Part shown: positions 14,769-41,744 of the stretch, piece after piece | Layout of the letters: each line of letters starts with the position of its first letter | How positions within the stretch are numbered: the stretch's first letter is position 1 | DNA from: Yuukianura sp. NJ FZ-2021 | Taxonomy: Eukaryota | Reading direction: 5' to 3' | Length of the DNA stretch: 64,000 bases | NCBI GenBank assembly: GCA_046563655.1 | Contig: CM102290.1 | Coordinates: forward strand, 12,772,001 to 12,836,000 | Notes under the pieces: model-generated | What the model was told of the DNA's origin: nothing | The model's input: only the letters and a program-made list of their open reading frames with translations | The model's database searches: none | Position numbers and translations under genes: made by a program

Positions 14769-15506
14769 ATGAAGGTTCTAACGGGAGCTGTACTTTGTAT
14801 GTGCATATTTGCGTCAGGAATTGCAGACGAGCCTCAAAATTCGGTAGATTCTGAGCCGGATTCAGGGGTGAGTTCTGATGCCGACTTCTGGCAGGGGTTT
14901 GACGGAGCTGAGTATATTACAGAGCTCACTGACGCTACGCACGACGATTTCACGAAGAATAATTCAAAGGCGTTTATCATGTACTACACAACATGTAAGG
15001 CATTAATCACAGTACACACTCAAATGAATTATAAATGAATTATATATTGACAGTTAAGTTAAATACTTAGCTGACACAAGTGTATATATGTATTATATAT
15101 CATATTATATGCATCTATTATATACTGTGTTACAGGTAAATAATTAATGTTAGGGAAGTGTCAATTCACTATATTATTCGTGTCCAGGGTGCGGTTACTC
15201 CAAGGACGCCAGGAAGGGTTTTGCTGGAGCGGCGAAGCAAATGAACCAAAAAGTATCTTTTGGAGCCGTTGATTGTAGCAACAACAAAAACGTAATTCAA
15301 TGATAAGGGATGAATTTCAAACACATTTTGGTTCTCGGAACTCAAAGTTACACCTTTGTTCATTTTTTGAAAAGTCTTGTCATGGTGGCGCCCATCCAGT
15401 AGATGGCTATCCAACATTCTACTTCTACAAAGATGGTGCTTGGGTCGAGGAATACCGAAGTCAACGAACAACACAGGCCTTCGTACGCTACCTCAACAGG
15501 AAGTGA
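14769..15506 (+). CDS. Secreted single-domain thioredoxin/PDI-like protein with a WCGYS active site; exons 14769-14994, 15188-15291, 15375-15506
   Basis: Hydrophobic signal peptide. The in-phase splice gives ITELTDATHDDF..KAFIMYYTT-WCGYSK..FAGAAKQM..FGAVDC..VDGYPTFYFYKDG..EYRSQRTTQAFVRYL. The 3' end is slightly uncertain because a GTGAG donor overlaps the stop. Confidence 0.85.
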
Positions 15507-15626
15507 GCTTAGACCAAAAACTTGATTTTTTGTAAAATTGAAATAAATTGGTTCAAACAAAAATGTGTGCATGAGGTAAAGTTGCTTCGCTTAGTTTTGA
15601 AACTCTGTTCCTTCAACTACACAAAA

Positions 15627-15852
15627 TCTTCTTTTCAAAATGCCACAGATTGTTGACAAACTACCTAAGATTCAGACTTTAGGTTAGCCATACGGCATGC
15701 ATGAAAAATTCTTCTTTTTTTTTCAAAATATGAAACTTTTGATCCATAACTGGCACGTAAAATGCAATTCTTCATTCGCTGGATTTTGAAGCATTTTGTA
15801 CGTCACATACAAAACGTAATACCAAAAATCATACTGCTGAAGCAGAGGATGG
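15627..15852 (+). repeat. Diverged direct repeat, copy A (copy B at 17337-17539)
   Basis: Shared blocks cttcttttcaaaa, ttgttgacaa, ttagcc..atgcatgaaaaat, tcttcattcgctgga, acgtcacatacaaaacg, aaatcatact and tgaagcagag.atgg, in the same order. Confidence 0.85.
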
Positions 15853-16017: not shown

Positions 16018-16744
16018 ATGGTAAGAAAAGTGGGAATTAGTTTAATTAAATAATTGAAATTAAACGAAGTATACTAAAGGACAATTTTGAATATTCTAGC
16101 CAAGAAAGTGCGAAGTCTGTGGCAAGTTATCGGAATTGATGTGCAAAAACTGTTCGGACTACTATGATGACGTAACATTGACCTATGGAAAACTGACAAG
16201 GAAGAGAGTGAATATTGCCTTTTACTGTTCTAAACAACATCAAGTCCAACACTGGAGTACTCATAAAGAGGAATGCTACTCAGCAAGGGTTAATAGAGCT
16301 TTTAAAAAACCGACTAAAACTGTCGATGTTTTGTACAATTGTGCAATGGACGATGTGATGCCTACCGAAAACGGTGTCCTGGTAGACTATGGTTTCGTAA
16401 ATTGTAAAACTCAACAAGAAAAAATCAACTTATTGGGGCTTTACCAAGGATTGTTGAAGTACCTTCTCTGCCACCCCGATGAACTGCACAACGCTTGTAT
16501 CACTGGAAAATTAGCAGAGTTTATAATTCAGGAAAATACATACGTATGCGACGATCCAAAACAATATTCCTATTACTTCAAGTGGTTTTTGAAAAATCAA
16601 GATATTGTTCGTAACGTCTATCCTATTTCGTCTGATTCTTCAAATGATGCTTATGCGGCTTCAATTTTTCATCGCCTAGGCCTACCCTCTTTAGTCATCA
16701 CAGAGGACAACGATTCCCAAATGACGGCAAATGTGGACTGTTGA
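16018..16744 (+). CDS. MYND-type zinc finger protein with an uncharacterised helical C-terminal domain; exons 16018-16020 (ATG only) and 16100-16744
   Basis: ATG|GTAAG donor and TAG acceptor at 16097-16099 are in phase. Translation: CEVC..CKNC..YCSKQHQVQHWSTHKEEC (MYND pattern). AATAAA at about 16833. Confidence 0.85.
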
Positions 16745-16866
16745 ACTCGTTAGTATTATATTGAGAGTTTCATAACATTCGTAATACAGCCATTACAAGG
16801 CAATCAACTATTATAGTAAAAAAATGCGAATTTAATAAAACCTTATGAAACAATATAACATTCACA

Positions 16867-17173
16867 ACAAGGTTCGTAAACAAAGCCAATGTTTTTTTCT
16901 ACAACAGGTTATCCTGCAGCTAGGGTTTTACGATTTTGTTAAAAATTTTCAAAAAATGAAACCGAATGAACTTTACCACCATGTTTATGGCAGTTTTTAG
17001 CTTTTTTTTTTAATAAATGTGGGATTTAGTGTTCAAAATTTGAAAAAAAAAATTGGGGAAAAAAGAAGAAACAAAATTGGTGCAGAAATTTAGTTGAAGT
17101 AAGATTTTTGGATACCCGGAGTTGTTGGACAACCTATTCTAGGAAATACAATTCTATTGTCTACTAACCTTGT
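16867..17173. mobile_element. MITE family A, two-ended copy
   Basis: acaaggtt..ctacaacaggtt at the left end and gagttgttggacaacct..aggaaatac..aaccttgt at the right end. Confidence 0.65.
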
Positions 17174-17336
17174 ATTCACAATGTTTTCCAGTGTCAGAGT
17201 GGCTAGTGCGCTTACTTAGCTTTTCTTGACGTAGTTTGCAACGATTGTTGGGTAGTAAATACATTTAGAATAACATAATTAGAATGATGAAGCAGTGCCA
17301 GGACTCCATTTCTTTTATTTACGTTTAGAAACTAAG

Positions 17337-17539
17337 CTTCTTTTCAAAATTTTGTAAGCTTGTTGACAACTCCTCTTGTTTACTAATTGTAGGATTAGCC
17401 GCACGGTATGCATGAAAAATCACTTTTTTGAAAACATGAAAGTTTTGAGCAACTCTTCATTCGCTGGACGTTGAAGCACTTTGCACGTCACATACAAAAC
17501 GAAAAACCATAAATCATACTTTTGTGAAGCAGAGTATGG
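17337..17539 (+). repeat. Diverged direct repeat, copy B
   Basis: Colinear with 15627-15852, with one internal deletion. Confidence 0.85.
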
Positions 17540-19565
17540 CGACAAACTGCAACTGATTTTATGGCAGTTGTAAAGAAAATTGCTCCCTGACGTTTACAGC
17601 TTCTCGAGATCATTTTCAAATTTACATTTTAAAAATCTCCCCTCCAGAGTGCCTCTTCCCCATCAAACTAAAAAGGTGTAAACAAGTCTGTTCAAAAACA
17701 ACGAAATCATCGAAACAAAAACAATCGAAAAGCAAAATTCTAGACTTTGTTGTTGAACTCGTTAGGAAACCGAACAGAACCATGTTTTTTTTTCTGACTA
17801 CTTTTCAGTTGTGTACAAAAAGTCAGAAAGTCTTGCAAATCCTTGACTTTCCCTCTGTTCATGCATTTCCGCTTTAAAGTTTTAGAACCGCTTTGAATAA
17901 AGACTACTTTTGCACTAGGAAGACACTTGATCCAAGAAAAGATGTAGCCTGCACAGGGCCCATTGACATCAAAAGTAGAAAAGATGTATCTGTTCCATAG
18001 AAAAATAAGACTTTCCAATTGAAGTCTTGTGACTTTCCAAAGTAAAGGGAAATGATCATAATACTCAAGATCATCCGAATCTCCTTTTATGGGAGATGTC
18101 CTATAAATTTACATAGGAATACACATAACTCTGCTAAGGAAACGGGGTAATCGGATACTCCTATTTCTGGGAGTCAATAGAACATCACAGTCCTCTGCAT
18201 TCTGATTACCCATTGGCAACTTCAATAAAATGTCACCCTCCTTCCAACCCATTCCAGGACTCTGAAGAACGGAAACTAGTGAACCTGTATCTTTATGAAC
18301 GGATACATGTAAACAGCACTTCTATGCGGCTACCACAGCCGAACTGTCCACAAAACTGTATGGTTTATATGTACAAGTCCATGAAGGTACCCGTGCATAA
18401 TTCCCCGCACAGGAGTGTCTGGCTACTCTTCCGACATTCTCCGTTAGAAGCCTTTGTTAACAGTGAAAGTTTTCATGGAAAAACGACCAAGATTCTCCTC
18501 ATGACTTTTGGTAGAAGAAAGTAATTTAATCAAGGGAACTGTCTTAATTTCTACTCTGTTTCAAAATATACTTGAACATTCTTGTTCTCAAGATCTAATC
18601 AAGTTCGTTTCGATTCCAATGAACTCAACATAGTAACGTATAAATCGGGATGAATATGGCATCCTGATATTTACATCAATCCAGTTCTGCCGTTCTGTCA
18701 GTAGGAAACATTTTGTTTTCTAAGTGTTGCAAATTTTTGAAAAAAAAAACATTCATGGCATTAGGAAAAACGTTTTTCAAACCTTTTCTAGGACTAGGAT
18801 CTGCATTCAAAACTAATTTAGAGGATGTATGAATTTTGCTTTTTTTGGTAGCTCATGTATTCTGCTTCCTGATTTTCCCAAATACGAATTTCGACGTCTG
18901 ACGTGCTTACTTCATTCCAGTGAAATACGATGTAAGCATCATCTAGTGGAACAGCAAATTGCAAAGGGCAAGACGCCCAAAGGATGCAACTTTTTATTCC
19001 CTCGACGTGAACCTGGAAGTCACCACCGAATAGTAATGGCAAAAGAGAGCATTGCATATACTATAATACCCAGTAATGCAACAATAATACGTTTAAGTTT
19101 AGAGGGTTCCCAAACAATTCCTGCATATGATTAAAGAAAACCTTAATTTTCAGGAGAAAACAATTCTTTTCTTCCAAAATTTGACAAATAACGTGCGCCT
19201 TATAGACGAGGAAGAACGGATGTGGTATAAATATTTTTTAATTATTCCAAAATTCCTCCAAAGTGCTTTGACGTGAAAGTAAAGAGCACTAACCCTGAGT
19301 TGTTAAAAGTGTCAAAGTTACAGTTTTCCGAGTTCTGCAATTAATAGTATAACTGATAAGATCATTTTACTGGAATTAATCATACCACGATATGCGTATT
19401 AATTTCATGTTAGTTAGGTTAAAGGTTAGAATCGAAAAATTACAGTTTCCTTCTAGTCTATCCGAACCTTAGTCGTCTAAATCAAATAGTAATTCTGTTT
19501 AACTAATTTACTAATTTAATATAAGAGGCTGTTCTAACCTTTACTTAATTAATCTTCCACTTTAA

Positions 19566-19994
19566 TTATTTATCATATTTTTTATTTTGCTCTTTCAGTA
19601 AAACTTTTTTCAATTCTCTTTTAAAATTCCGTACTTCACCTTGCAAATTCTTCTTATTATTGCAAAGCTGTATTGATCTAGTTTGAAATGTAGTTAAGCT
19701 CTTTTTCAGAGTAATCTCTTTAGTGACATGCATTTTCATGTGGTTAAGAGGTTGATGACGTAGGATACCTATGTACTTCACTGAATTTTTATAGTAATTT
19801 TTAAAAACATCAATACTGCTATCATTACCTAGTTTGTACATAAATGCAAGCACTGTATATTTAAACAATGCTTCTGGGTATAACCACTGTAACTCATTTG
19901 CCATATCTGCATAAATTTTTTCATCTCTTCGTTTATCAAATCTCATGTTAGTTGGCAACAAAATTTTCCTAAAACTGCACACAAGTCCTACCAC
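19566..19994 (-). other. AT-rich, Lys-rich 142-codon ORF of unknown status (orphan exon or decayed mobile-element coding sequence)
   Basis: Open frame longer than expected at this AT content. No clear ATG or splice structure. Confidence 0.3.
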
Positions 19995-20134
19995 GCTTTC
20001 ATTGAAATCAAAGAGCGTATAACTATTGAAAATTTTTAAAAAATTTCGTTTTATTTATTTATTTAAAATTTTTTTAATTTCAGAAGAAAATTTTTGTGTT
20101 GATTTTGGTTCATATTATTGAAAAAAGTTTTAGA

Positions 20135-22770: not shown

Positions 22771-24455
22771 ATGGCGTTGCAACAAGTACCAATTGCCCAA
22801 GGCGTAATGGGTGTTGCAGGAGGTCAGCCACATCCAGACTTTCAGCCTTTTATGGAACAAGTAAGAACGTAGAGTCAGTTAGTTGTAAACGCTGTGTAGA
22901 AGTAGAAGTAAATCCATCCAGTGGTTCAGCAGACAGACAGACAGACGGACAGACATAGCAGAAAACATAAAGTAGCCAACTACTTACGCTCCTTACTAAT
23001 AAGTTTCTCATCTTTAATTCCATTCTTCATGCTATGGACTTTACGTAGATTGAGCTCCAGCGGTCATCTAAGACTTTTTAGAATGCAAAGAAATGTGATG
23101 GGAGTGTGAGAAATTTTCGTGGCCGTTATTTTAATGCTATTAATTACAACCAATAAGTGATTCCGGTACAAGTGAAAAAGTTAGAATTTTTAACAAAATG
23201 TAAAACCCATTTTGCTTCATGTCAAAAATCGTGATTAATTTTATCGTGACGTGTCAACATCACGGGTACCTGGCTAGTTTTTATTTTTATTTTGCAAGAT
23301 TTTTTCGCATTTTCTTTTCATTTTTGCATGCCTCTAGACTAAAAATTGTTTCATTTCAACTTGAAATCTTTCAGTTGCCAGATGACTGGAAGACGCCAGT
23401 GTCAAATCTCCTTGCATCTGCAGCTACAATGTGGGTCAAGCTTTCCAGCTACAACGAATCTATTCAGCATCTCGATGAATTGGAAGGATTGGTCAAATCC
23501 GCTACACCAGCATTACCTGAGGCTGACAAGGTCAAGTCCATCATGGAAAAACTTTCCAATGCAAAAGCCAGTTTCGTACAGTCAGTTAAGTCTTTCTGTT
23601 CGGCTGACTCTCAGTCTTGCAATACTGTTGATTATGAAGCCATTTGGAACAAAGCCCAAGCGGAAGTTGTTGAGCAAGTGAGGCTCGAGAAGATGGAAGC
23701 AGCTAACAATTGTGTCCGATGTCAACTGATCACTTCCGCCGTCATCTTGGTCGTAGAGTGCCAAGCCATTTATGCAACCTTTGCGGATATTCAAAATGCA
23801 GAGAATGTTGTCAAACAATGCAAGGACGTTGACATTCCGTATATCCAGACTAGAATTCTTGAAATTCAGGAGAGAGAAGGTCAACTCCGGTCAATGATTG
23901 AGCAGTACTTGGTCAATGGCACGATGGAATTGAAGTTTTTGCTTCTTGCAAGATCTGCAGTTTTAACCGGAGATTTGAACGAAGTCAGGAATTTGATTGG
24001 TAAATTGATGCACTAAATAAGAATTTGTAAACAAAACGAAAAGTTTCAAATTTTCTTTAACTTTGTTTATAGTCGAGGTGCGATTTGAGATAAATGGACA
24101 AATTGTGAAAATTGGAGCCGTCAAACGAGATCAAGTTCGGCGTGGCTTCTCAAATGGAGCGCAAGCGCTTGGAAACGCTTTTCAATTGGCCTATTTGTTT
24201 GGAAATTTGTCAAATCCATTCAGATGGATCCAAGGATTAATTGCCGCTTCATTTGGGATTGTAGCAATCCTTAATGTTCGCAATTCTTTTGTTTGTGAAA
24301 AGAAATTAGAGGAATTGCGACAACTTCAACCCACAATTCGCGAGTTGGAATTATTCGTACGTCGAGCGCATGAAGCAATTCAACATGCGGAGAGTCTGCT
24401 CAACCCAAACCAGCCCCAAATTGCAGATCCGGTTAGGATGAGGATCCAAAATTGA
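22771..24455 (+). CDS. Three-exon orphan alpha-helical protein with a C-terminal hydrophobic hairpin; exons 22771-22860, 23375-23999, 24073-24455
   Basis: CAA|GTAAG at 22861 joins TCAG|TTGCCA at 23375 in phase 0. A phase-1 intron at 24000-24072 joins the two long ORFs. Confidence 0.75.
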
Positions 24456-24630: not shown

Positions 24631-27600
24631 TTATCGCTTAGATCCCTTCTTAACATTAGAAATTGCTGTGCCAAGTTCAGTCGTCTTCGCTGCGTCCTCG
24701 CTCTTCTCACTAATAGATGACAATGACATTGAAGCTTGTTGAAGCGAACGTCGGCGGGAACGGGTCATGGGGGTATGTATAGGTGAATCAGTTTCTGAAA
24801 CTTCCAGTACGGTAGACAAGCCTGGTTGATAATCAAACACACGACGATTGTGATGTGAAGTGTCTGAGGATTGGTTTGCCTGTGAAGAGTCTTCGTCGAT
24901 GCTGAGTTCATTTTGTCCACTGGAAATCCCTGATTCGGAATGTCGACGTGTTGACTTCTGCGAATTCGTTCTCGCTTTGCTCTTGGATTTGCCAGTAGGT
25001 GTCTCGGCTCCACCTATTTAACAAAAAATCTATTCGTTGAGCGTCGACTTCAAAAAAATTACACAAAACGTTTCATTAGTGAAATCACTGAATTCATTTA
25101 CCGGAGGCACTTGTCTCACAGACTTCAATTGATACCTGGGACTGATCCCAGGATTCATTATCGACAGACATGTCCTGGAGCGACGTATCCGACTCGTCAA
25201 TTGAAGATTCTAATATAGTGTAAATATCTTTTCTCCCTCTTCTGTTGGAGGTCCTCGTCACGAAATGGGCGGAGCTAGTGGTGCCGACTGGTGTTGACGG
25301 CATGAGAGACTGGGAGCGAGTAGTTCTAGATGTGTTGCTAGTAGTTCCCGACTTCCGCCTACGCCTTGTGGTGACATTAACTCCAGAAGGAGAAGATTCT
25401 CCAACTGGCTCCGATTGGGCACGAACCGCCCCTGCAAAACAAAAACATAATGTTAGCTGGTAATGCTAGGTCAATTGAAGTAATTGAAGGACTTACGGGC
25501 ACGGGATGGCTTGGATCGCTTAGGCGGTGGTTCTGGTGATTCGTCGACAAAAATTTTTGAGTTGTCCGCAAGGAAACTTGATTCACTCAAGTGCCGAGCA
25601 CGACTTCGGGTCATCATTCCGAAACTGACGTTCGGATCCATTTGCAAAGAATCTACACGACGACCCCGCTTCGAGGGGGTAAAGGAGTCCAGACTTGTCT
25701 CACACTCACCAGTCTCTTCATGTATTTGGCAATTATTTAACTCACTGATACCAGGACTTCCATCTTCGAGCGACATATTTATTTGGCAATTATTCAACTC
25801 ACTGGTACCAGGACTTCCTTCGTCGAGCGACACTATAGTATTCCCCGTCTCTTGACTTTCAACTACTTCACTAATTTCTTGGTTCAGTTCGTCCAAGTCT
25901 CCTCGTGGCTCGGGCATCTCCGCGTCCTCGCTCAACATAATCACTTGCGGCTGGATGTCCCGCCTAGGTGATAAATTTGTCGCACACTCACCAGTCTCTT
26001 CATGTATTTGGCAATTATTTAACTCACTGGTACCAGGACTTCCTTCTTCGAGCGACATAAGTATTTGACAATTATTCAACTCACTGGTACCAGGACTTCC
26101 TTCTTCGAGCGACACTATAGTATTCCCCGCCTCTTGACTTTCAACTAGTTCACTAATTTCTTGGTTAAGTTCCTCCAAGTTTCCTAGTGGCTCGGGCATC
26201 TCCACGTCCTCCGTCAACATAATCATTTGAGGCTGAATATCCGGCCTAGGTGATAATACATCTTGTTGCGGTAAGTCGTCGTTTGAACAAATCACATCGT
26301 CCACTTCAGGGCTGGAGGAAGAACTTGGGACTGAGAAAGGATCCGTTGATCCGCTTCCACTAGTAGGAGGTGAACTTCCACTAGTAGTAGGTGAACTGTC
26401 GCTGCAAATCGTATAAATGCTGTCACTCTGGTTCAGTTCAGCGGGAGTTTCGGAGGAAGAGACGACTTCCAAGAACCTAGTACGTAGCAGCTTATTCCTC
26501 AAAGACGCTGGTGCATCCTTCTTTCTCTGCAACAACCAAACAAATTTTAAAAGCTGATCAAATGCCTTAGTGGTTTAGTTTACAACTTAACTTACCTTGA
26601 TGCTGCTTCTTGGCGGAGGAACCGGTTGTTGAACAGTATCTGAATTAATTGGTTCCGTCTCTTCATCTATCTCTATTCGTGAATTCGAGTCGACACAGAT
26701 TTCATTTCCACTAGCTCCGTCTCCAATACTTATCAGATTACTTTCTTCGTCAGCCGAGGAGACGGAAGAGGTGCTTCGCTTGGTTTTTCCTTGAAACCTC
26801 TTGAGAGGACTAAGCGGAGTGACACCTTCAGTCATCCCAACACCATCTAAGCGGTTGTAGTCAGCGGAGGTCTTTTCCAGTGAATCTGAATACTCTAAAT
26901 ACAAAAAATGAGGAAAAACGAATCATATTTAGTGATACTAGTTCCAACAAGAGCAAGTGAGTTAGGTTTTCGATTAAGGTAATAATTAATAGTATATAAG
27001 CTGCTATTTCAACTTACCCTTCCTTGTAGAATCTGCATAGGTAATCGCGCCAAGTCCTTGGTTTGCAGCTAATAGACGTCTAAGTGCTACTTCCATTTGC
27101 TCGAATTCAAAGTCACGATCACGACGACAATTATTTTGATCTTCGTATAATTTGAGCAGGGCATCATAGACAGCAGTGGCTTCTTTAATTCTTCCGGTAT
27201 GCACAAAGAACTTGAACAATTTCACTTGGTTAGAGAACGAGTTTGGGAGAGACTGCAGATAGTTCTCCACTGCACATTTTACGCCGTCGCTCTCTCTCCA
27301 TATCCCCGACAGAATCATGTTATCTAGCTTGTTGTACTCATCCGCAACTGAAATATAAACATAACATAACATAAACATAACAGAATTATTGCACAGTAAG
27401 TGCAAAAACAGCGATGAATATCTAGAATTCCTAGGTAAAAATAACCCCGGAATGATGTCAATCTTTGGCTCACCTTGCAGCAATTGAAAGAAAGTGGTCT
27501 GGTCATTGACAAATTCCAAAACTCTGCTTCTAACAAGCTGTAACGAGTGTGATTCCTGATCCAGTGATAAACTCAGAGCGAATCTACACAAAAAAATAAC

Positions 27601-38821: not shown

Positions 38822-41744
38822 ATGCTACCAATCAAAATTGGGCCGGCGTTTGCCCTTCCTTGTCGACGACGTACGGTCACTTCATGGCCAATTTCGGCCT
38901 TATGGGTGTTCCTGTCTGTAAGTCTTGCTGGTTTGTCCACATTTAGCTTCCTACAGGCAGACTGGGTCATCAAGAGAGACTTGCTTGTGAGTACATTGTA
39001 CAGACGGACAAGTTCGAATGAAGGTTCTGTGCCAACAAGTGGTAGCACAGCGGCTGAAGCCACCGAAGTGCAAAATAGACGCTACGTGACCAGTGCACAG
39101 CAAGCGGAGCTTCCTTTCAGAGTCGACATTTCCAACCAAGACTTTTCCAAATTCCTAAGTAAATATACAAACATTGAATTTGAAAATGAAACTATCTTTT
39201 ATGACTCCAGTTTTAATCGAATTTCCAAAGTGACCAAAGTAATTACCACTGTGAGATTTGGTCTTGTGGGTGTCTGTACTAGTCCGACCAACGATATTCT
39301 CCAGTGTCACCTTTATGAAAATTTGGAACAAGATGAGTTTCCTGTTTCACAAATTTGGCCAGTAAGAACAAACAATTTGTTCAATTTTGATGTAAAACAA
39401 GTCATTTTTGTTGAATTTTATGATTTTTTTTACTTGTTTTATGAAGTAGCGAAAGCTACTTGATGTGAAGACGTGTCTGTCTTTCCGTCCGTCCGTCAAC
39501 GGCGATTATTTTAGAAATGGTCCAGGATTTCTAAAATCTGTTTTCGCCGTTGAGGAACTAGTGAGCTCACTATCGAAAAGTGAATCATTTCGGTAGGTCA
39601 ACTCTTTCCGGGTCAAAGGTCAAGGTTAACCGGTCAAAATACATTAAACAAATTAAACATTTCAGCTTCTTTAATTTATTTCACTGATAAGCTGAATTAT
39701 TTCAACGAAATATTTGAATTATTTTCACTTTTTTTTCATTTGTGTCAGTCAAATGAAATAAACATAGATGAAATTTTCAGTTAATTTCACTTGTTTTCAG
39801 TTTCTTTCAATTTTTCAGTTTTTTTTTATTTATTTCAGTTTCTTTCACTGAAACAAAAAAAAAACTACCCGACGCTGAAACATGTACAACACTGGTCAGC
39901 AATTTCTTCAACCGTGTCACAATGGCTCATCTTTCGCTACTTATGAACATTCGGATTTACCGTTTATATTTTGTTATGCTTATATTATTGTAAATGTGAA
40001 CGTGAAAGTGAGGTGAAAGGTGATCTTCAAACGACAAGAACTTTTGTAGTGTTAACCTTCCCCTCAGACTTTCTCCATCGTTAGTTGATAATGAAATTCA
40101 AGTTTGTAATTGATTTAGTTTTGAAGAGGGAGATTCGTAATTTTACGGTGAAATGAATAACCCTGTGTTTTCCTCTCCGCTTTCTCAAGAGTCAAACTTT
40201 GAAATCCCAAAGTTTTCCAATTTTGATTCTTTTTTGAGGAAGAGAGAAAGTGAGTGAGGACCTGATCCATTCTTTGTGTGTGGAACTTGACAACCTTGGC
40301 TCAAGACAAAAGCGTCGGATGTAAAATTGGAATTTGGTTTTTCCGTGAAGCCAAAAGTGAAATGGGAGGATAATGGACCCGCTTTCTCCTTTTTTCTTCC
40401 TTGGCAAGACTCAAACATCATTTATTTTCCCACGTTTTCTCCTCTCTTTTCCTTTCTCACGGATTTCATATTTTTTGTGAAACGAGGGATTGTGCAACAA
40501 CCTCACAAAAACTTTCTCTCCCGCAAACTTTCTCTCCCTTGTTTACTCACATAATTCCAAGTGATTTCCTTATAAGTGCTGGGGGAGCGGTAACTACTCT
40601 TTAGAAAATTCACACTAAAGTGAAAAAGTAACAGTTTTGAGTTTAACTGAGAATGAAACTAATTTAAACTAAAAGTTTAAAAAATTCTAACTTTGCATTT
40701 TTAAATTTCTGAAATTGAACTTATTATAGTCTTACAGTTTTGTTTTCTAAATTTAGAAAGTAGCTTTTTCTTTTTCGTGAAAAGTAGTTTTCGAAAGCCG
40801 TTTCGCGCGTTTCGACTGTTCCATATTAACGACTGTGCGTTTCCTTTACAGATGCTGACGCTGGCTGGTGGAAGTGGTTGCGTGACACTTTGCGTGTGTT
40901 CCGTGCTGTCACTTCTGGCTGTGTCCTTGCCCACTTCCAGGATGAGACATGAAGTGGCACAAACCATAGGTCATGCACAGACTGCTGCAGGTCAGTGGTT
41001 TACTCAATCTCACATTCACTTTCACCCTACTTTTCCAACATTAGTGGCATGGAAGATGTGGAAGAACGGATAGGAGTTGACGCTTCACCGATTCTTAGTC
41101 CTCCGTAAACATAAATAGCTTACGAAGCCGTTCATTAGTTCAAATAAAAATAGTTCAAATCAAAAAGTTAAAAAAAACTATGCTTAAAAGAAAAATAAGT
41201 CCATTACTAAATTTTTATTTTTTCTAACTAAATTTTTTCTTTTGTTTTTTCTTGTTGAAATTGTGGGTGTTAACACCAGGTTGTCTATAACTCCTTGTTT
41301 TTCATTTTGTTAAAAAATTGAAAAAACTTTTTTACATATGATAATTATTTTCATGTAAAGCAATTGGAATTGAGGGAAAAAATTATTTGAAGCAAAATTT
41401 TTGCAAACCCCGAGTTATTGGACAACCTGTTGTAGGAAATACCATTGTCAAGTCAAGGAACCTTGTATATTATGATGCTTGTCGAAGAAACTTGTTTTTG
41501 ATTTACGTTTTTTTGTGCAGTGGTGCTTCTGATTGTGTCACTTGTTGGATTTCCAATTGGATTCACCTCTGGATTTGTGCGTCACCATTGTGGACCATCG
41601 GCCAACGTCTACTCCCCGGGAGACTGTGAAATCGGGTGGGCGTATGCTTTGGTTCTCGTATCAACTTCTCTGTCACTCTACTGCCCAATCCTAGTCAAAT
41701 TCACTGCTGAAGCACAATACGAAGTACTTCCGAAATACATCTAA
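38822..41744 (+). CDS. LHFPL tetraspan family (TMEM211/LHFPL-like) protein; exons 38822-39361, 40852-40990, 41521-41744
   Basis: Four TM segments. LW..LS..FLQADW, FGL.GVC and FPIGFTSGFVRHHCGPSANVYSPGDCEIGWAYAL match the LHFPL pattern. Splice phases are consistent. Confidence 0.88.
39444..39965 (+). mobile_element. Helentron-associated (HINE/DINE-1-like) non-autonomous element in intron 1 of the LHFPL gene
   Basis: 5' hairpin aagtagc-gaaa-gctactt, a GTCY microsatellite, a ggtcaaaggtca core and a 3' subterminal inverted repeat ctttcgctactt at 39931-39942. Confidence 0.65.
41277..41467. mobile_element. MITE family A copy in intron 2 of the LHFPL gene
   Basis: caggttgtctataactc pairs with gagttattggacaacctg. 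The right extension matches 1778-1850 in reverse. Confidence 0.7.

Follow-up and report, generated by a model that had tools for sequence, protein, structure and literature searches.

The stretch of DNA analysed here (hereafter the window) spans 64,000 nucleotides, corresponding to positions 12772001-12836000 of scaffold C8 in an assembly of 98.7 Mb and 22 contigs, and it carries a gene coding for a MYND zinc finger followed by an unnamed all-helical unit. In window coordinates, the gene and its immediate surroundings comprise the following features:

14769..15506, plus strand: spliced thioredoxin-like gene, the upstream neighbour, a linkage marker outside the element (PF00085, E 2e-4, just below the cut-off)
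15625..15852, plus strand: left copy of a gene-flanking direct repeat, which shares 70% identity with 17334-17539 across 233 columns
16018..16020, plus strand: first coding exon, holding the start codon only (read from the sequence, with the splice predicted from GT-AG signals)
16021..16099, plus strand: predicted 79-nt phase-0 GT-AG intron, three codons ahead of the first Cys
16100..16744, plus strand: second exon of 645 nt, with 214 codons and the TGA stop
16109..16276, plus strand: MYND zinc finger (PF01753), with the ligands C5, C8, C16, C19, C44, H48, H56 and C60 read off the translation
16154..16225, plus strand: 24-residue loop joining the finger halves between Cys19 and Cys44, delimited by alignment
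16316..16621, plus strand: single-copy all-helical unit of ~100 aa (residues 74-175), unnamed, delimited from relatives and an AlphaFold2 model
16622..16741, plus strand: acidic, Ser-rich tail of 40 aa without a conserved counterpart
16834..16839, plus strand: AATAAA, a candidate polyadenylation signal read from the sequence
17076..17175, no strand assigned: copy of a dispersed host repeat ~330 bp past the stop codon, with matches on C1-C8
17334..17539, plus strand: right copy of the gene-flanking direct repeat

Once spliced, the frame of 16018-16744 has 648 nt and is translated into 215 amino acids with no internal stop; an in-frame stop lies three codons 5' of the ATG (16018-16020), the context of which is A-rich. 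Judged from its sequence, the MYND gene is real and intact, its predicted splicing following the GT-AG signals. The initial annotation had placed the whole coding body in one exon, which is true for everything but the start codon, and the motifs quoted in it (DYGF, NCK, QEKINLLGLYQGLLKYL, LH, GKL and YYFKWFLKNQ) were all found in the translation. The MYND finger that it had named was recovered by PF01753 with 32.4 bits, the cut-off being 22.7 (E 9.7e-8), and all eight Cys/His zinc ligands are present in the right order, the sixth being His and not Cys. Moreover, the loop within the finger has 24 residues in the window protein against 11 in a host paralog (L002) with which it was aligned. This finger was the sole Pfam match of the window protein, residues 74-175 falling into no Pfam family. 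The earlier description of the domain as uncharacterised is borne out. No SET, PDCD2_C or 2OG-oxygenase domain was matched in the window protein at E<=1, and the Pfam comparison of the 215-aa sequence likewise gave neither the PF14441 deaminase domain nor a UCH or peptidase C12/C19 family.

In the assembly, the MYND gene is physically linked to host genes, its neighbours on C8 including a two-pore K+ channel (best PDB matches to vertebrate-type TASK/TREK) and ELYS-like and TAF1B-like genes. The GC3 of the gene is 0.41, within the span of 0.34-0.57 of eight host ORFs, and the host genome yielded three odorant-binding-protein matches above the cut-off and two weak 7tm_6 matches among nine candidates; taken together with the relative in Folsomia candida, these gene contents suggest a springtail-like hexapod as host. 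The repeat at 17076-17175 matched all 40 of the candidates that were scored (221 were found), on scaffolds C1-C8, and copies of this ~100-bp sequence also lie at about 1778-1878 and 41368-41468 of the window. In a genome search, the flanking direct repeat gave only its own two matches (15625-15852 and 17334-17539) and no third copy, and no second copy of the gene was found beyond it; the pair may be left over from a duplication at this site or from the insertion. A mobile-element explanation drawn from the flanking repeats was not established, the direct repeat having two copies only and the repeat at 17076 belonging to a dispersed host family. Further along the window, broken frames without a Pfam match at 17740-19060 (minus strand) are perhaps a decayed element, an AT-rich frame of 162 codons with a Lys-rich end and no Pfam match occupies 19566-20054 (minus strand), and two long frames without a Pfam match lie at 23204-24016 and 24021-24455 (plus strand). 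An acidic exon with internal protein repeats at 25471-26574 (minus strand) is probably the terminal portion of the ELYS-like gene.

Relatives of the helical unit were obtained by a full HMMER scan seeded with three host units, from which the family emerged, a homolog search by word index, run on the entire ORF, having scored none of its 40 candidates. The scan returned 612 relatives at E<=1e-3, and in the best 150 of these 612 one unit was detected in 36 proteins, two in 46, three in 65 and four to six in 3; in many of the two-unit proteins, a diverged middle repeat was probably missed. The commonest fungal form joins a MYND finger to three tandem units in ~390 aa, and single-unit forms were found in Tulasnella, Mortierella and many environmental proteins without an organism name. 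The deaminase domain PF14441 occurs in 22 of 51 scanned relatives picked for length or for a single unit (21 of them above the cut-off), and other relatives have the unit joined to TPR or HEPN domains. The fungal resemblance put forward in the initial annotation lies well past chance: a profile built from 13 named fungal units scored the window domain at 106 bits (E 5.5e-32), where the highest of 1000 shuffles reached 7.9, and one built from ten fungal first repeats gave 84.6 bits, against 8.1 for the best shuffle. Consistently, profile-profile comparison of the window unit with the fungal three-repeat unit reached a probability of 99.8 (E 3.8e-28). The window gene belongs to the MYND family; to the fungal three-repeat and deaminase-fusion architectures it is related by homology without being one of them.

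Among these relatives, a second unnamed domain was seen to adjoin the unit, before or after it, in P0043, P0078, P0168 and P0175, and by eye in P0094, P0161 and P0182, some of these proteins also carrying TPR or DZIP3-type HEPN domains. At locus L007 (3239-5987), a deaminase-like frame lies just 5' of a MYND-three-repeat frame, both probably forming one spliced fusion gene. At locus L011 (284-4148), a fragment of a fungal-type three-repeat gene directly follows broken transposase-looking frames, which we take to resemble a hAT-type transposase.

An organism was named for 15 relatives (6 of 30 clusters looked up and 9 of 40 homolog-search rows), comprising 13 fungal proteins (Tulasnella, Agaricomycetes, Tothia, Diversispora and Mortierella), one from the liverwort Marchantia paleacea, one from the springtail Folsomia candida and none from any other animal. 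Non-animal sequences thus make up 14 of the 15 named relatives, yet 12 of the 15 closest pairwise matches are environmental proteins without an organism name, the other three being from Tulasnella. Consequently, further animal or protist members may exist, and naming is tilted towards fungi because fungi are well annotated. The patchy animal distribution foreseen in the initial annotation is nevertheless what the named relatives display, with Folsomia the one animal in 15, and broad arthropod or metazoan orthologs did not appear among the named matches. The clusters of a protein atlas were rejected as evidence of transfer, the fungal value of 0.92-0.93 for the whole protein being driven by the MYND finger and the leads for the unit being below 0.8.

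The His-type finger was found in 6 of 42 single-unit relatives, and in 5 of 134 multi-unit relatives (77 Cys-type, 52 not matched), and it occurs in five of the six matched other host MYND genes (8 loci). This distribution hints that the window finger could be host-derived. In a separate observation, the Marchantia paleacea protein (P0007, KAG6542930.1), encoded on a 1.7-Mb contig, carries three units, with a His-type MYND finger at its C-terminus; it groups with the host paralog L002 (96/87) and possibly represents a separate transfer.

In the host genome the helical unit is present in three copies, the window gene on C8 and two paralogs on C3, each with one unit (3/3). The paralog L002 combines a MYND finger with the unit, has an upstream intron and adjoins a TAF11-like gene (match below the cut-off), and L003 consists of the unit only, with no MYND finger. 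Beside L003 (730-1182, 1-540) lies a gene for a small, secreted, Cys-rich product with no Pfam match, and the 3' ends of the paralog and of this gene appear partly duplicated nearby. In the tree, L003 is sister to OXA57400.1 of Folsomia candida (support 100/100, 53% identity), and L002 shares with a metagenome contig (L006) a short first exon and a phase-0 intron two codons ahead of the first Cys, as well as 50% identity over 164 aa; judged on these sequences, L006 is probably the ortholog of L002 from another soil animal. Although the tree did not join L002 and L006, a placement of L002 with L006-type proteins was not rejected (p-AU 0.346). Because of the sisterhood of L003 with Folsomia and the structure shared by L002 and L006, the family would be old in the host lineage. 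The units of the host paralogs are 31-36% identical to the window unit, and an exclusive clade of the four springtail-type copies was rejected at the borderline (p-AU 0.039), by a test that is strict in that rows without an organism name may be springtails too. Since the springtail-type copies do not group, several entries or an old paralogy would fit better than one tidy transfer.

The IQ-TREE phylogeny comprised 82 units and 106 columns, with bootstrap values not fully settled. Of the fungal-type multi-repeat proteins it kept 20, and near-duplicate sequences, fragments and weak middle repeats had been removed from it. Fungal first repeats formed a clade (99/98), as did the last (third) repeats (100/98), and the window unit fell outside both with no supported sister, a position also seen in a FastTree of 273 rows. 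L002 clustered with the Marchantia protein and two proteins without an organism name (96/87). Placing the window unit as sister of the fungal first-repeat clade (p-AU 0.118) or with Tulasnella (p-AU 0.371) was neither rejected nor supported, the groups with p of 0.118, 0.346 and 0.371 having been picked post hoc with the trees already seen. Furthermore, compared column by column, single-unit proteins switch between first-repeat-like and third-repeat-like blocks, an alternation more in keeping with a unit of ancestral type that was never duplicated than with the product of a deletion.

From these data, a foreign origin of the gene is likely, and a fungal donor is plausible. The reading that we prefer, and to which as a joint statement we grant an even chance, is that of an intact, domesticated host gene that would descend from an old acquisition out of a patchy, non-animal eukaryote family and would act as a non-enzymatic adaptor. 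The helical unit would have entered the lineage in its single-unit form and not in the common three-repeat form of fungi, and the donor may have been a fungus. Domestication, which the initial annotation had also proposed, agrees with the intron, the host-like GC3, the paralogs and the animal neighbours. The fungus-to-soil-arthropod transfer suggested there held up in part: the named relatives are mostly fungal (13/15), but in the best tree the window unit does not fall inside the clades of the fungal three-repeat proteins, and as to the fungal source, the domain also occurs in a liverwort and an organism name is missing for most of the closest relatives.

The nearest competitor is a direct transfer from fungus to springtail, either from a single-unit donor (Tulasnella-like or Mortierella-like) or from a MYND-plus-three-repeat gene that was reduced, a scenario which we regard as possible though rather unlikely. 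Tulasnella provides the best pairwise match (48% over 102 columns, 97 bits), 13 of the 15 named relatives are fungal, neither the Tulasnella placement (p-AU 0.371) nor the first-repeat-sister placement (p-AU 0.118) was rejected, and according to a published survey, 32.8% of 809 foreign genes reported in F. candida are fungal (PMC5490193). However, the window unit lies outside the repeat-1 (99/98) and repeat-3 (100/98) clades with no supported fungal sister, its alternation of repeat-1 and repeat-3 blocks is ill-suited to a simple deletion, and few multi-unit proteins (5/134) have the His-type finger, which other host MYND genes commonly have (5/6). In addition, names are biased towards fungi, which are well annotated.

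Vertical descent of an ancient eukaryotic domain, lost in most animals and kept by springtails, appears distinctly unlikely. It would account for the presence of the unit in fungi, a liverwort and springtails, for a single-unit form that looks ancestral, and for host copies that are deeply diverged (31-36% to the window unit) and ungrouped. Against it, no animal besides Folsomia was found among the 15 named relatives, many independent losses would be needed, and the grouping of L002 with the liverwort protein (96/87) is not species-congruent, a point weakened by the L006-type placement not being rejected (p-AU 0.346). Scans that detect close relatives only gave no viral or bacterial source, and a giant virus may still have been one: no relative was found in phage records, four of five IMG/VR scans were empty and the fifth gave a single 18-residue match of 6 bits that was discarded, none of 59 pattern matches in prokaryote genomes held up, and PHROGs gave one weak match among 16 members.

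Regarding the function of the unit, its AlphaFold2 model is all-helical, with seven helices and high confidence (pLDDT 95.4, pTM 0.88). No PDB sequence match was obtained for the unit, and Foldseek returned no match for its model at E<=0.001 in PDB and BFVD. The best structural match (VIA) was a Zuo1 bundle (Z 4.5, rmsd 3.4, 74 aligned), with retroviral matrix proteins at about 4.2, and a three-repeat model (pLDDT 91.9) gave matches only via the MYND finger (best Z 4.2). Weak matches of this kind, drawn from predicted models, demonstrate neither kinship nor a new fold. As regards a papain-like fold, the model is all-helical and the best structural Z was 4.5.

In an alignment of 16 sequences the invariant columns are G, F, L, Y, L and W. 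Polar candidates are frequent in 37 single units (Asp97 86%, Cys103 89%, His131 76%, Cys134 84%) and in 75 last repeats (95%, 100%, 95% and 88%, respectively), but the first repeats (n=120) mostly lack the two Cys, His131 is absent from both host paralogs and Cys134 from one. Because the invariant sites are Gly, hydrophobic or aromatic and the polar candidates are missing in first repeats and paralogs, a binding module is favoured over an enzyme. MYND domains bind proline-rich partner motifs. By analogy, the window finger would bind such motifs and the helical unit would supply a second binding surface. In fungi, the unit would help to aim the deaminase, and the occurrence of the MYND-unit module on OTT_1508-like deaminases in many fungal proteins points to targeting, for defence or editing, as a possible ancestral role, which the host would have kept without the enzyme. 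A deaminase search of the host genome matched none of two candidates, but none of 14 controls either.

That the unit is instead a small Cys/His/Asp enzyme or metal site is highly doubtful. Such an activity, e.g., that of a deubiquitinase, has been claimed for BtUCH19 of the whitefly, a fungus-derived MYND protein of 391 aa whose deubiquitinase activity is reported in a preprint (10.64898/2026.06.01.728072), and this protein has the size of the fungal three-repeat form and its N-terminal MYND finger. The frequency of the four polar residues in single units (76-89%) and last repeats (88-100%) would suit a catalytic or metal-binding site; on the other hand, both Cys are mostly missing from the 120 first repeats, the His is missing from both host paralogs, and no Pfam peptidase family was matched in the window protein or in 61 three-repeat proteins. 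Contamination with fungal DNA or a mis-assembly is very unlikely, to the point of being negligible, given that the gene sits among animal genes on a multi-megabase scaffold (beyond 12.7 Mb of C8), with host-like composition and a host repeat 330 bp away, and that there are two paralogs on another scaffold and a counterpart in Folsomia.

Probably transferred and domesticated, the window gene carries an unnamed domain in which its value lies: this domain is compact and has no Pfam name, and its model, though confident, has no clear counterpart among solved structures. The unit is met as a single copy, as three copies, or in fusion with deaminase, TPR or HEPN domains in fungi, a liverwort and springtails, and the springtail proteins, with their one unit, offer the easiest access to its binding partners. 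A broader conjecture, as a whole a long shot, sees in the unit a so far undescribed conflict module shared across kingdoms, with its own fold. In fungi, it would serve the antiviral or editing OTT_1508 deaminases; springtails would have acquired it repeatedly, it would also have passed between soil animals and liverworts, and it may form the functional part of BtUCH19, the atypical whitefly deubiquitinase. Literature searches listed no description of the helical unit, and the gene may already figure in published tables of horizontal transfer, which were covered in part. In the searchable parts of the F. candida supplements, neither the gene id nor MYND was found (PMC5490193), and the searchable part of O. 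cincta supplement file 2 holds at least seven MYND places, all with animal best matches. Gene transfer into springtails is well documented, so that one further case is unsurprising: the F. candida study counts 809 foreign genes, 32.8% fungal and 24.6% protist (PMC5490193). The transfers reported in springtails are mostly metabolic; the window gene looks regulatory.

Compared with known proteins, the window gene is most readily set beside the fungal MYND-type proteins of ~390 aa (Diversispora RHZ63871.1; Tephrocybe, Amanita, Gelatoporia and Rhizoctonia), which likewise have an N-terminal MYND finger followed by the helical unit; their units number three in tandem and their finger is mostly of the Cys type, whereas a single unit and a long-looped finger of the His type are found in the window protein. 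The Tulasnella proteins KAG8919626.1 and KAG8910502.1 are the best named pairwise matches (44-48%) and of the single-unit type, but they have no MYND finger, differ in their flanking sequence and form no supported grouping with the window unit. Similarly, Fcan01_06589 (OXA57400.1) of Folsomia candida is a single-unit springtail protein, the sister of L003, but has 117 aa and no MYND finger; with 36-38% identity to the window unit, it is not an ortholog of the window gene. With animal MYND proteins (SMYD/SmydA, PDCD2 and EGLN1), the link is the His-type finger shared with several host MYND genes, while the SMYD, PDCD2 and EGLN1 types carry SET, PDCD2_C or oxygenase domains and the window protein none. 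The SET-MYND protein het-Va of Podospora is unrelated. In many OTT_1508-like deaminase-MYND fusions, the MYND finger and the unit make up the C-terminal part, the deaminase itself being absent from the window protein. For these deaminases, MYND fusions have been noted and a role against selfish elements proposed (Iyer et al., 2011; PMC3239186), and in Neurospora, related OLD enzymes bring about antiviral RNA editing (PMC12754623); the passages on OTT_1508-like deaminases available from both sources mention the MYND fusion and not the helical unit. Finally, BtUCH19, as described in its preprint, differs from the window protein in its length (391 aa), its claimed deubiquitinase activity and its closeness to fungi, and its kinship with the unit is conjectural, but as a fungus-derived MYND protein in a hexapod it offers a precedent for such a transfer.
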